The notes under the pieces were generated by a model. It searched no databases and was not told the DNA's origin. It saw only the letters and a list, made by a program, of their open reading frames with translations. A DNA stretch of 3,514 bases from a virus (Duplodnaviria; Heunggongvirae; Uroviricota; Caudoviricetes). The position numbers and the translations under genes were made by a program. Below are positions 277 to 3,514 of this stretch, one piece after another. Position 1 is the first letter of the stretch. The number at the start of each line of letters is the position of its first letter. The stretch lies in IMG/VR virus record IMGVR_UViG_2778261692_000010; one strand, given 5' to 3'.

Positions 277-933
277 TTATTGCAATTGCACAAGAGTCAG
301 TTCGCCCCCAAAGACAGCACCGGTATCAATATAATGCAGGTTGCCAATATCCACGCGATGTCGCAACGGTGTATGACCAAACCAGAAATGATCAGCACCT
401 GTAATTCCCTGCCCTTTTTGGCGTTCACCTAATCGCGAGCGGCTCCACAAGACCTGATGCAAATCAACGTCCTTTTGCCATTCATAAACATCATCTGGAT
501 AATCGGCATGAGCAATAACATGTTTGCCGGTACGACTGTGTACTTCAAGAATAAAGGGCAAATGCTGACATTTTTCCAGCGCCGTTTTCGCTTGTTTCTG
601 TTGATTATCTGCCAGCGCAATAAACCAGTCGCCGCCATTCATCAACCACAAAGACATCTGCTGGGATGCCAGCGCATCCATCGCCATCTGTTCATGATTG
701 CCTCTTACCGCACAAACCCAATGTTGTTCCAGTAACTGCAGACAACGTAAACTTTGCGGCCCACGATCGATAACGTCTCCTACTGAGATAAGTAAATCTC
801 GCCACGGATCAAAACGACAATGCCATAATTTGCGGCGCAACTGCTCAAGACAACCGTGTATATCGCCAGAAAGCCAGATATGTCGCCATTGATGACCCGC
901 AATTCTCTGATAAACGGGCGCAGGCTGTTTCAT
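277..933 (-). CDS. pphA: Serine/threonine protein phosphatase 1 (PPP-family metallophosphoesterase, lambda-phosphatase-like)
   Basis: 218-aa product starting MKQPAPVYQRIAGHQW... carries the metallophosphatase signature motifs GDIHG (aa 23-27), GDVIDRG (aa 52-58) and GNHE (aa 78-81). The ORF track begins one codon earlier at 934..936, which is TTG on the minus strand; the ATG at 931..933 is the likelier start, with GGAGG 9 nt upstream. Stop (TAA, as tta at 277..279) abuts the yebW stop. Matches my recollection of E. coli PphA/PrpA. Confidence 0.9.
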   Translation of the reverse strand: MKQPAPVYQRIAGHQWRHIWLSGDIHGCLEQLRRKLWHCRFDPWRDLLISVGDVIDRGPQSLRCLQLLEQHWVCAVRGNHEQMAMDALASQQMSLWLMNGGDWFIALADNQQKQAKTALEKCQHLPFILEVHSRTGKHVIAHADYPDDVYEWQKDVDLHQVLWSRSRLGERQKGQGITGADHFWFGHTPLRHRVDIGNLHYIDTGAVFGGELTLVQLQ

Positions 934-1067
934 CAATATTTTCCTCCCGCGCTAAAGATCACATAATCTTAACAAGAATGTTAAAAAACGCTGGACTCAG
1001 ACAGTAGAGTGTGTGTTATGGTTGACTATAAAGTCAGCGAAGGAAATGCTTCTGGCTTTTAACAGAT

Positions 1068-1100
1068 AAAAAGAGACCGAACACGATTCCTGTTTTCGTC
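1068..1100 (-). ncRNA. sdsR: Truncated 3'-terminal fragment of sRNA SdsR/RyeB (terminator hairpin region); likely prophage attachment core
   Basis: Plus strand AAAAAGAGACCGAACACGATTCCTGTTTTCGTC is the reverse complement of a U-tract plus hairpin. It matches my recalled E. coli SdsR 3' end (RC AAAAAGAGACCGAATACGATTCCTGTATTCGGTC) with 2 substitutions and a 1-nt gap or third substitution near its end. It lies about 135 bp beyond the pphA start, where sdsR is expected. Similarity ends at about 1100; the rest of the sRNA is not in the window. Comparison sequence is from memory, not a search. Confidence 0.5.
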
Positions 1101-1397
1101 AACAAACAACAAAATCTTTTAGAATTAATGTGTTAAATAAATTTATGCTCATCTTTTAATCTCTAACACGTACTATTACATATTAATACATTCAATTAGT
1201 TACCATTTTTTTCGAGTTTTTTAGAGAAATTTTCGGGAATATTTCAGGTCAATCCATGCATACACAAGCAATTCCTGTATTGAATAATTCCGTAGCAATT
1301 ATGTAAAATCATCTCCGGCTGATTTTCATTCAAACTCGCGCTATCGAACGTCCATCAGCCAGCCGTGGCACGTTCTTGCATACGACGTGCTACGGTT

Positions 1398-1952
1398 TCA
1401 TTTATCTCCGACTGGAAACTTCTTATACAAAGTCGATACGCCAACATCATAAATGATCGCCACCTTCTGGCGAGGAACTCCTGATGCAATTAGTCGCCCG
1501 GCCTGCGCCCATTGTTCTGGTGAAAGTTTGGGACGGCGACCGCCAATTCGTCCCTGTGCGCGAGCAGCTTCCAGTCCAGCTTTTGTTCGTTCAACAATCA
1601 GTTCACGCTCCATTTCAGCCAGGGCACCCATGACATGAAAAAAGAAACGGCCCATTGGGGTGCTGGTATCAATAGCATCCGTCAGGCTGCGAAAATTAAC
1701 GCCACGTTCGCGCAACTCCTCAACCAGAATGACCAGATGCCGCATACTACGCCCCAGCCGATCCAGCTTCCAGACAACCAGAGTGTCACCTGCCGATAAT
1801 GTCCTGAGCAGTTTTTTCAGTCCCGGCCTTTCGGACTTTGTACCGCTTATCTTGTCTTCAAAAATCAGCTCGCATCCTGCACAGTTCAACGCATTACGTT
1901 GTAGATCGGTATTCTGGTCATTTGTTGATACGCGTACATAGCCAATAAGCAT
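1398..1952 (-). CDS. pin: Site-specific DNA invertase, serine recombinase (Pin/Gin/Cin/Hin family)
   Basis: 184-aa product MLIGYVRVSTNDQNTDLQRNAL... has the catalytic serine in YVRVSTNDQ, a DRLGR motif and a C-terminal helix-turn-helix; near-identical in my recollection to e14 Pin and Mu Gin. Start chosen at the ATG at 1950..1952 (minus strand), which has AGGGAGA (1959..1965) 6 nt upstream. The ORF track's upstream extension to 1988 (MASFLLLSGRST) is probably not translated. Stop TGA at 1398..1400. Confidence 0.9.
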   Translation of the reverse strand: MLIGYVRVSTNDQNTDLQRNALNCAGCELIFEDKISGTKSERPGLKKLLRTLSAGDTLVVWKLDRLGRSMRHLVILVEELRERGVNFRSLTDAIDTSTPMGRFFFHVMGALAEMERELIVERTKAGLEAARAQGRIGGRRPKLSPEQWAQAGRLIASGVPRQKVAIIYDVGVSTLYKKFPVGDK

Positions 1953-1978
1953 GGTAGATCTCCCTGACAAAAGCAGGA

Positions 1979-2500
1979 ATGATGCCATTTGCTCGTTATT
2001 TCTGCATTTTCATAAACGTTGGTTTGGGAGAAGGCTCTGCATTACCTGTTGGTGTCCCTGTTCCGTGGCCTTCAGCCACACCGCCAACAGGCTGGCTGAA
2101 ATGCAACGGAGCAGCTTTTTCTGCTGAAGAATACCCGGAACTGGCAAAGGCTTACCCGACAAATAAATTGCCAGATTTACGTGGTGAGTTTATTCGTGGC
2201 TGGGATGACGGGCGTGGTATTGATGCTGGACGTGCTTTATTGAGCCTTCAGGCTGGGATGCTGGAAAAACACCGCCATATTGTTGTTGCCAATGATGGTT
2301 ACGACACAAAAGATGAATGGGAACTGGCTACGATTTTCAAAAAGACATACACACAAGGACGGGGACTTGATGCCACAAATACAGGAGGGAGTCTGATCCC
2401 ATCACCGACACTTCATTCACGAGGGAGTATCGGTAATACTGGCGGGAATGAAACCCGTCCACGAAATATTGCATTTAATTTTATCGTGAGGGCTGCATAA
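1979..2500 (+). CDS. Tail fibre protein, C-terminal variable (receptor-binding) cassette; promoterless fragment read away from the invertase
   Basis: Product contains ...ALPVGVPVPWPSATPPTGWLKCNGAAFSAEEYPELAKAYPTNKLPDLRGEFIRGWDDGRGIDAGR..., which I recognise as typical of Mu S / lambda Stf / e14 StfE C-terminal regions. There is no N-terminal shaft domain. An in-frame stop lies at 1955..1957, 24 nt upstream of the ATG, and the first ~18 codons span the crossover site, so the ATG at 1979 is unlikely to be a real start. Stop TAA at 2498..2500. Confidence 0.8.
   Translation: MMPFARYFCIFINVGLGEGSALPVGVPVPWPSATPPTGWLKCNGAAFSAEEYPELAKAYPTNKLPDLRGEFIRGWDDGRGIDAGRALLSLQAGMLEKHRHIVVANDGYDTKDEWELATIFKKTYTQGRGLDATNTGGSLIPSPTLHSRGSIGNTGGNETRPRNIAFNFIVRAA
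2007..2032. other. 26-bp crossover site for the Pin-family invertase (hix/gix/pix-like), one end of an invertible segment
   Basis: TTTTCATAAACG TT GGTTTGGGAGAA has imperfect dyad symmetry: two 12-bp half-sites (TTTTCATAAACG and, by reverse complement, TTCTCCCAAACC) around a central dinucleotide at 2019..2020. Its reverse complement matches about 20/26 positions of hixL as I recall it (TTCTTGAAAACCAAGGTTTTTGATAA). It lies 55 bp from the pin start codon and inside the start of the tail-fibre cassette ORF, as expected for these switches. Confidence 0.7.
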
Positions 2501-3102
2501 TGGATAACGCCGTATTAAATAGCGAGCTTATTGCCACGAAGGCGGGGAATATTACCGTCTATAACTATGATGGTAAAACTCGGGAATATATTTCCACTTC
2601 AAATGAATATCTTGCCATTGGTGTCGGTATCCCTGCATATTCCTGTTTAGATGCCCCTGGCACACATAAGGCGGGTTATGCTATCTGCCGTTCGATGGAT
2701 TTAAATTCATGGGAATATGTGCCAGACCATCGCGGTGAAATCGTCTATAACACCGAAACGGGAGATGCCAAAGAAATCACAGCACCGGGTGATTACCCCG
2801 AAAATACAACCACTATCGCCCCATTAACGCCATACGATAAATGGGATGGTGAGAAATGGGTGACCGATACTGAGGCACAGCATAGCGCCGCAGTAGACGC
2901 GGTAGAAGCACAGCGTCAGTCACTGATTGATACTGCAATGGCTTCCATTAGTCTGATTCAGCTGAAATTACAGGCCGGGCGGAAACTGACGCAGGCAGAA
3001 ACAACCCGGCTTAACGCTGTGCTGGATTACATTGACGCGGTGACGGCAACAGATACCAGCACCGCGCCGGATGTCATCTGGCCTGAACTGCCGGAGGCGT
3101 AG
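2500..3102 (+). CDS. tfa: Tail fibre assembly protein (Tfa/U family chaperone)
   Basis: 200-aa product with Tfa-like N-terminus (NITVYNYDG...) and the characteristic C-terminal motif DTSTAPDVIWPELPEA. Start ATG overlaps the upstream stop (TAATG at 2498..2502), indicating translational coupling; GAGGG at 2488..2492 lies 7 nt upstream. Stop TAG at 3100..3102. Confidence 0.85.
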   Translation: MDNAVLNSELIATKAGNITVYNYDGKTREYISTSNEYLAIGVGIPAYSCLDAPGTHKAGYAICRSMDLNSWEYVPDHRGEIVYNTETGDAKEITAPGDYPENTTTIAPLTPYDKWDGEKWVTDTEAQHSAAVDAVEAQRQSLIDTAMASISLIQLKLQAGRKLTQAETTRLNAVLDYIDAVTATDTSTAPDVIWPELPEA

Positions 3103-3514
3103 GCCATTCAATATCTGGCGCACTGGAAGTATCGACCAGCTCCAGTGCGTCCAGATAATCCAGCCACAGATTATATTGCGCCAGTTCCTCACCTTTCAGA
3201 CGACCAATAGCCGCTTTACCAGGCCATTGTTTACTGTTCATATAATCGTTGGCCTGATTAATCAGTTGCTGCTTTTCCAGTTCGGCTGCAGCAATCTGTT
3301 CCTCAGGTGTTGGTGGTGGAATTTCAGACCATGCAGGAAAACCATTTTCTCCAGCGATACGGATTTTTCCTTCCGGCGGTAATCCGGAAAACTCAATATA
3401 CACCTGCTCATCAACTTCAACAGCATCATCTGGCCATGAGTCAGCTTGAGTGTAATCCTCTTTCATTTCCAGTGGATAGAAAGAGTTTGTAGTCGCGGAA
3501 TATATGTAATTCAT
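3074..3514 (-). CDS. tfa: Tail fibre assembly protein (Tfa/U family), second copy, convergent; 5' end at the window edge
   Basis: 146-aa product ends in the Tfa motif DTSSAPDIEWPTPPAVQAR. The N-terminus MNYIYSATTNSFYP resembles the conserved IY..TN.F start of Tfa proteins, so the ATG at 3512..3514 may be the true start, but the frame could continue past the window. Stop TGA at 3074..3076. Overlaps the other tfa by 29 bp. Confidence 0.8.
   Translation of the reverse strand: MNYIYSATTNSFYPLEMKEDYTQADSWPDDAVEVDEQVYIEFSGLPPEGKIRIAGENGFPAWSEIPPPTPEEQIAAAELEKQQLINQANDYMNSKQWPGKAAIGRLKGEELAQYNLWLDYLDALELVDTSSAPDIEWPTPPAVQAR

Follow-up and report, generated by a model that had tools for sequence, protein, structure and literature searches.

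The closest described case of prophage integration at a site of this kind is Salmonella enterica DT104, in which lysogenisation of ryeA/ryeB by PhiW104 is accompanied by lower ryeA and higher ryeB expression, according to a review citing Balbontin et al. (2008; J Bacteriol 190:4075) (PMC7380047). [quoted passage not shown] In the review's account, the attachment site, which lies inside ryeA, is the same as the one analysed here and consists of the final ~23 bp of ryeB/sdsR, part of the terminator stem; as here, the phage regenerates the 3' end of the sRNA, and ryeA is parted from its original 5' portion and promoter. In contrast to PhiW104, the host here is E. coli and the prophage is a different one, with a pin/tail-fibre end. 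Moreover, the published description, as relayed by the review, deals with ryeA on the attR side, its 5' part coming from the phage, whereas the present stretch contains the reciprocal attL product. No description of an attL-side chimeric transcript in E. coli was found in the literature, where Balbontin et al. (2008) was represented by the review.

Prophages residing in the 3' ends of tRNA and tmRNA genes are comparable in that the integrase targets the hairpin-forming 3' end of a small RNA gene, and in that attP carries a near-copy with which the gene is made functional again at attR, attL being left with a dead remnant. However, the target considered here is transcribed on both strands, and its "dead" junction keeps a live promoter on the opposite strand. 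A third point of comparison is the lambda tI/sib region, with which the present locus shares a stable hairpin on the arm parted from int in the prophage, ~270 nt past the att core in the int direction.

The window, i.e., the whole stretch of 3,514 nucleotides from the IMG/VR record IMGVR_UViG_2778261692_000010, contains, according to its list of open reading frames, the 3' part of yebW, pphA, an intergenic region, a pin-type invertase, and inverted tail-fibre and tail-fibre-assembly genes. Positions 1-1093 are E. coli yebW-pphA-ryeA DNA, with six mismatches to K-12 MG1655 and none past position 781; therefore, the host is E. coli or a very close relative. No full-length match to the window was found among complete E. 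coli genomes, the tail-fibre region being the variable part. In RefSeq, K-12 ryeA is located at 1923066..1923337 on the plus strand and sdsR at 1923104..1923207 on the minus strand, which, with the alignment offset, puts the start of ryeA at position 1030 and the 3' end of SdsR at position 1068. The locus had been correctly recognised from the sequence, including the antisense arrangement in which RyeA starts on the pphA side of SdsR: the RefSeq genes map here, and K-12 identity extends to 1093. The host/phage boundary also lies within the interval then proposed for a chimeric transcript (1030-1400). Position 1094 is a T where K-12 has an A, 1095-1098 (TTCG) are common to both, and the two sequences diverge completely from 1099. 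The features on the host side and at the boundary are the following:

277-933, minus strand: pphA (phosphoprotein phosphatase 1), the flanking host gene, equal to K-12 pphA and annotated as pphA in near-identical genomes.
1014-1022, plus strand: ryeA sigma-70 promoter, with the extended -10 TG at 1014-1015 and the -10 hexamer TATGGT at 1017-1022, identical to K-12 and located with primer PM_RyeAF.
1028-1030, plus strand: RyeA transcription start sites, 1030 being the annotated K-12 5' end and 1028-1029 the presumed places of the other two.
1030-1093, plus strand: RyeA 5' segment of host origin, 64 nt, kept at attL, with 100% identity to K-12 RyeA +1 to +64.
1068-1098, minus strand: remnant of the sdsR 3' end (terminator), forming the att core homology; 1068-1093 are host DNA and 1094-1098 host-like phage DNA.
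1083-1093, no strand: crossover segment ACGATTCCTGT, bounded by 1082 (C in the host, T in the phage) and 1094 (A in the host, T in the phage).

The crossover was placed by comparing four sites, K-12 attB, the present attL, the attR of strain AH19B041 and the attP of phage PP818812, which align over a common core with reciprocal arms. The segment ACGATTCCTGT is within the 3' half of the SdsR terminator stem, and the breakpoint (1083-1098) falls in the last ~23-30 bp of sdsR, as described for this integration hot spot. In strain AH19B041, the junction of which is 99.8% identical, pphA and yebY are separated by a prophage of ~42 kb that carries xis and int on its yebY side, adjoining attR. The sequence of this attR is ...AAAAAAAGACCGAATACGATTCCTGTATTCGGTCC...; behind it, the sdsR and ryeA sequence is intact and reaches 118 bits with the Rfam model of SdsR and 180 bits with that of SraC_RyeA. 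In the free-phage record PP818812, int is followed by ...AAAAAAAGACCGAATACGATTCCTGTTTTCGTCAACAAAC... and then by the same arm as in 1094-1390. This record is labelled as an Actinobacillus phage, yet has an E. coli-type att region. The sequenced stretch itself ends within the tail-fibre genes, and int is known from AH19B041, where it is next to attR, and from PP818812, where it adjoins attP. These alignments mark the interval as the attL junction of a ~42-kb lambdoid prophage residing in the sdsR terminator, and there is no doubt about the chimeric architecture of the locus. Of 5426 complete E. coli genomes, 228 have the same junction, with the exact attL arm beside the ryeA promoter, O26, O111:H8, O45:H2 and O55:H7 strains among them. 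Since 5191 of the 5426 have an uninterrupted attB, this arm type accounts for nearly all occupied sites.

We propose that a tyrosine integrase inserted the prophage into the last ~26 bp of E. coli sdsR, in the terminator stem. Such an insertion would split the bidirectional sdsR/ryeA locus, so that the promoter, the start sites and the first 64 nt of RyeA would stay beside pphA and the SdsR gene together with the RyeA body would be displaced ~42 kb to attR, where the phage would provide a new terminator half. The native SdsR terminator folds at -15.8 kcal/mol and the phage-rebuilt terminator at attR at -17.9 kcal/mol, with seven U, whereas at attL neither strand of the remnant keeps a comparable fold, the hairpin being degraded (-7.3 and -4.5 kcal/mol). 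All combinations of hairpin and tail were scored with a d'Aubenton-Carafa-type function (d, below), which gives the attL remnant -26.5 against +8.9 for the native sdsR terminator. The remnant is followed on the plus strand by AACAAACAAC and, therefore, cannot stop transcription in the RyeA direction.

The K-12 promoter from which such transcription starts has been characterised experimentally. In the study of Choi et al. (2019), primer extension revealed three neighbouring start sites for RyeA, and the furthest downstream coincides with the annotated 5' end (PMC6610125). RACE served to locate the 5' end of the RNA that accumulates, processing trimming 1-2 nt (PMC6610125). The promoter is sigma-70 dependent, a fragment from -80 to +10 is active as a CAT fusion, and changing the -10 box from TATGGT to CTCGAG abolishes activity (PMC6610125). 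The reverse complement of the mutagenic primer PM_RyeAF from that study reads GACAGTAGAGTGTGTGT-CTCGAG-TGACTATAAAGTCAGCG and carries CTCGAG at 1017-1022, so the wild-type -10 hexamer is the TATGGT at these positions. The spacing of the TG and the -10 box was read from the sequence, and no confident -35 was assigned. The -80 to +10 fragment corresponds to 950-1039, all of it host DNA identical to K-12, and the identity is unbroken over ryeA -80 to +64, within a segment (782-1093) without any mismatch. By sequence, this is the sigma-70 ryeA promoter on the pphA side with its TATGGT box. In this part the locus is like the native K-12 RyeA/SdsR pair, its promoter, start sites and first 64 nt being identical.

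The promoter had previously been sought in TTGACT (1022-1027) and TATAAA (1027-1032). Both hexamers are present, and the reservation that they make no convincing -35/-10 pair was justified, as they overlap and a consensus scan reports no promoter there. They are, however, the wrong hexamers, located between the experimentally defined -10 box and the start site (PMC6610125). The supposition that the promoter survives on the pphA side of the insertion is correct: it lies at 1014-1022, upstream of the junction at 1083-1098, rather than downstream of it, the position that would have spoken against a chimeric RNA. Because the fragment sufficient in K-12 is untouched, transcription should start in the lysogen.

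In K-12, the ryeA promoter is active even in stationary phase. Its output at attL could drop via convergent transcription from pin, or via Int/IHF bound at attL. An extreme form of this idea is that the promoter is all but shut off in the lysogen, whether the nucleoprotein complex at attL occludes it, H-NS spreads from the arm, or minus-strand read-through from pin collides with its transcription, so that no chimeric RNA accumulates. It would fit with the reduced ryeA transcription that the review gives for Salmonella after lysogenisation at this att site (PMC7380047), and with an AT-rich arm that begins just 64 bp downstream of the start site. Nevertheless, the reported drop refers to the ryeA body with its phage-replaced 5' portion and not to the orphaned host promoter, and here the promoter and 80 bp upstream, a fragment that sufficed in the reporter, are unchanged. 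We consider such silence very improbable.

Beyond the junction, transcription would enter phage DNA:

1094-1360, no strand: P' arm of the phage attP, AT-rich and non-coding, contiguous with the core and int in the free phage PP818812.

The G+C content of this arm is 25-30%, and the arm is identical in five lysogens in which the adjacent cargo differs (pin, nleG7, tail fibre, acetyltransferase). The 7-mers TTCGAGT (1211-1217) and TTTCGGG (1231-1237) recur in the P arm and may be arm-type Int sites. Checked against PP818812, no conserved ORF of at least 20 aa exists in 1094-1360; a small ORF at 1256-1306 (16 aa) was discarded, not being conserved in the free phage. Promoter-like matches inside the arm (four, against 2.3 +/- 1.6 expected) are not above chance for AT-rich DNA. 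The terminator scan revealed no plus-strand terminator near threshold in 1030-1360, with no candidate above d = -33, and transcription should therefore enter the arm. From the K-12 start sites at 1028-1030, RNA polymerase would pass over the terminator remnant, degraded and lacking a U-tract on this strand, and proceed into the AT-rich arm.

The composition of the arm, G-poor at 25-30% G+C, is such that Rho or H-NS could stop or silence transcription before the hairpin described below. The corresponding alternative holds that the ryeA promoter fires and that termination is early and heterogeneous in the P' arm, by Rho on untranslated G-poor RNA and/or H-NS on AT-rich DNA, leaving only short unstable RNAs, with neither a discrete sRNA nor an antisense to pin. 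It agrees with the 78-nt windows starting at 1082-1134 (~1082-1211), which hold 3-7 G and 11-13 C (C/G of 1.9-4.3), with the folding of the whole 391-nt RNA, no better than that of shuffled sequences (z = -1.6), and with the lack of a conserved ORF in the arm, so that ribosomes would not shield the RNA. However, absolute C is low (~15%), native RyeA reaches its own terminator despite being an untranslated RNA of 272 nt (PMC6610125), and the action of Rho and H-NS is not reliably predictable from sequence. On balance, early termination appears unlikely, and we favour transcription through the arm as far as the hairpin that precedes pin. The features at this end are:

1361-1397, plus strand: conserved phage hairpin, a borderline candidate terminator, from folding, score and covariation.
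1396-1405, plus strand: U-rich tail UUUCAUUUAU on the 3' side of the hairpin, the complement of the last pin codons and stop codon.
1398-1952, minus strand: pin-type DNA invertase (serine recombinase), the last prophage gene at this end (Pfam Resolvase, 8.7e-52; HTH_7, 1.7e-14).
1030-1405, plus strand: predicted chimeric RyeA'-phage transcript, ~370-376 nt if the hairpin stops it, proposed from the promoter and start-site evidence, the lack of an earlier terminator, and the hairpin.

The plus-strand fold of the hairpin has an energy of -21.5 kcal/mol (z = -4.4), which none of 200 shuffled sequences equalled. The minus-strand fold is weaker (-15.5 kcal/mol, z = -1.5) because two G-U pairs turn into C-A mismatches. 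The hairpin is thus the stable, G+C-rich stem-loop expected of an intrinsic terminator. It was absent from the output of the consensus scan, the loop of 9 nt exceeding the limit of that tool (8). For UUUCAUUUAU the tail score is 3.24; three U directly follow the stem, and the U-tract is interrupted. The scores of the relevant terminators compare as follows:

K-12, plus strand: validated ryeA terminator, d = +23.
K-12, minus strand: validated sdsR terminator, known to be leaky, d = +8.9.
1363-1395 plus TTTCATTTAT, plus strand: the hairpin, d = -4.5, the best plus-strand score in 1020-1560.
1020-1560, plus strand: next best candidate, d = -33 or lower.

The hairpin plus its tail would be the first plausible stop, transcripts ending at ~1397-1405 to give an RNA of ~370 nt. 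With a score below that of the leaky sdsR terminator and an interrupted, non-conserved U-tract, this predicted 3' end is uncertain.

The hairpin itself is conserved. Its inner stem and loop, CACGTTCTTGCATACGACGTG, are present in more than 120 IMG/VR contigs, among which the outer stem shows covariation (CCGTGG/CTACGG, CCGCAG/CTGCGG, CTGCGG/CCGCAG and CCGCGG/CCGCGG). Its 3' flank is a mosaic breakpoint beyond which the sequence follows the neighbouring gene, and the U-tract is not conserved in related phages. As the tail in other phages differs according to which gene adjoins it, its U-richness here is incidental to the pin coding sequence, and the idea of a dedicated plus-strand terminator is weakened by this mosaic flank. 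Unlike lambda sib, to which it is not homologous, the present hairpin lacks a conserved U-tract; in HK97, the annotated sib (21042-21091) is a separate element located directly upstream of the HK97 copy of the hairpin, which lies immediately beyond it with a remnant of the same pin codons. A match of the minus strand at 1364-1420 to Rfam CssrB (RF02799) was also rejected: it reaches 31.8 bits against a gathering score of 76, covers the terminal hairpin only and skips 129 model positions. For CssrB, the literature search brought up nothing but unrelated papers on chemistry.

The gene that follows, annotated pinE in the near-identical strain AH19B041, is convergent with ryeA and begins 1 nt past the hairpin with its stop codon at 1398-1400, so that the hairpin and tail (1361-1405) end just inside pin. 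The earlier suggestion that the transcript would be antisense to the 3' end of pin unless terminated is limited by this strong hairpin with its U-rich tail: a fraction of the transcripts would run on antisense into pin, some read-through being expected because the terminator is borderline. A stronger version would have most transcripts pass the hairpin as a long RNA antisense to pin, perhaps reaching into the invertible tail-fibre segment, lowering pin by transcriptional interference or RNase III and with it the inversion frequency, as a functional host-promoter input to the phage switch. The borderline score of the hairpin (d = -4.5), the convergent orientation of pin at a distance of 1 nt, and the interference that the ryeA promoter exerts on a convergent promoter in K-12 (PMC6610125) are in line with it. 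In contrast, the hairpin is stable (-21.5 kcal/mol) and has three U right after it, and the same arm is found with non-pin cargo in other lysogens, showing no sign of selection for a pin-specific role. Extensive read-through with such a function is, in our view, quite improbable.

The limited transcript ending at the hairpin, which we prefer, retains little of RyeA. Host sequence antisense to SdsR amounts to 26 nt (1068-1093), or up to 31 of 104 nt with the host-like phage bases. To the phage-modified SdsR 3' end of the lysogen, 28 of these 31 positions match, the longest perfect run being 11 nt, and all of them are in the SdsR terminator hairpin. The Rfam SraC_RyeA model (RF00101) matches 1064-1184 with 25.4 bits (E = 0.07), below its gathering score of 37, and only model positions ~1-40 align convincingly. 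Compared with native RyeA, the chimera is without +65 to +272, including 78 of the 104 nt antisense to SdsR and the Rho-independent terminator next to yebY (d = +23), which is absent from the stretch and is found at attR in lysogens. Three of the four defining RyeA features tested (the gathering score, full antisense to the 104-nt SdsR, and its own terminator) are lacking, and the near-total loss of SdsR complementarity means that the chimeric RNA is not a functional RyeA. Unlike native RyeA, it cannot act as an SdsR antitoxin or add to promoter interference at sdsR, and it is most likely devoid of RyeA antitoxin or antisense activity. The label "RyeA/SraC" applied to it previously is appropriate for its origin and not for its function, and orphan-promoter read-through product would be a better name.

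Taken together, the best explanation, which we hold to be reasonably probable, is that the ryeA promoter orphaned at attL would produce a hybrid host-phage RNA of ~370 nt, a by-product without RyeA activity. The RNA with a host 5' and a phage 3' part, as first envisaged, is probably made, the architecture that it requires being in place (an intact promoter and no early terminator) even though the promoter hexamers had been misplaced. A search of the literature for published E. coli transcript data across the junction returned nothing usable. A function for this RNA is unlikely; it is most likely a neutral by-product, of the kind to be expected at a known insertion hot spot.

A broader possibility is that the orphaned promoter acts as a captured host promoter driving the prophage end, freed from SdsR-mediated decay and from collision with the sdsR promoter (PsdsR). 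It would then give an antisense input to pin and a sense input toward the type III effector nleG7 in O26-type lysogens, in which the arm is identical and nleG7 is in sense orientation relative to the ryeA promoter; the SdsR/RyeA toxin-antitoxin pair would be uncoupled and pphA cut from its main promoter, with four outputs rewired in ~4% of E. coli genomes. We regard this as distinctly improbable. According to studies in K-12, RyeA transcription restrains SdsR, a toxin-like sRNA controlling tolC, mutS and yhcB, and PsdsR drives pphA. If the chimeric RNA exists, integration into this bidirectional sRNA locus does more than "restore" the target gene: SdsR would be regenerated at attR with an even better terminator, and RyeA would lose its promoter, which would now feed the prophage end. 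SdsR dosage and pphA expression would then set lysogens, including those of the O26, O111, O45 and O55 lineages, apart from non-lysogens, as might the expression of the cargo at the prophage end.

In the AH19B041 lysogen, attR, the prophage end that carries sdsR and the body of RyeA, contains two elements contributed by the phage, which are given here with the native counterpart of the first.

AH19B041 attR locus 43165-43193: phage-rebuilt SdsR terminator, with seven U after a perfect 11-bp stem, -17.9 kcal/mol
E. coli K-12 locus 1610-1640: native SdsR terminator, five U, -15.8 kcal/mol
AH19B041 attR locus 43130-43157: promoter-like TTTGCA-16-TACAAT in the phage P arm (the int-side arm), also found in attP of the free-phage record PP818812 (about 1190-1220)

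The rebuilt terminator is stronger than the native one, both in energy and in the number of U, and read-through past sdsR may therefore be lower in lysogens. The promoter-like element lies directly 5' of the body of RyeA, where the Rfam model begins at 43155, and is a candidate replacement ryeA promoter supplied by the phage. In addition, int is co-oriented, and thus its read-through could cross sdsR in antisense. The same P arm also holds a partial core-like duplicate, AAAAAAGACCGGAATACAG (about 43075-43095), which precedes the true core by about 80 bp and could represent a former att duplication or an additional core-type site for Int.

The attP of PP818812.1, labelled as "Actinobacillus phage vB_Apl-pPE4", is 86% identical to the E. 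coli sdsR-specific arm and core. Since an sdsR-specific attP is unexpected for a Pasteurellaceae host, this suggests that the record is wrongly labelled or is a prophage of E. coli origin.

On the other side, the prophage sits between the sdsR promoter and pphA (window 277-1098). According to Choi et al. 2019 (PMC6610125), the main driver of pphA is the sdsR promoter, acting via read-through of the sdsR terminator. The terminator remnant left upstream of pphA at attL is wrecked (d'Aubenton-Carafa-type score d = -26.5 vs +8.9), and pphA transcription in the lysogen may rely on minus-strand read-through out of pin and the phage arm.

Beyond the attL arm, the following features were located.

Window 1361-1397: hairpin of lambdoid phages, also at 1564-1597 of the HK97 locus and in >120 IMG/VR loci (L010-L129)
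Window 1979-2500 (+), 2500-3102 (+) and 3074-3514 (-): pin-adjacent tail-fibre C-terminal and tfa cassettes, in opposite orientations

The hairpin is very widespread among lambdoid phages; its inner stem and loop are invariant, and its outer stem covaries. Its position coincides exactly with a mosaic breakpoint, where the int/att module meets the tail-fibre or pin module; in most phages, it forms no canonical intrinsic terminator on either strand. The opposed cassettes (window 1953-3514) have the arrangement typical of an invertible host-range segment, and no other part of the window varies as much among E. coli genomes.

In E. coli E2865 (1501-3039 of its locus), the same attL arm is followed by the plus-strand type III effector gene nleG7 (2389-3039). 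A consensus scan found no terminator between this arm and nleG7; therefore, the ryeA promoter left at attL could in principle contribute to sense transcription of an effector gene.
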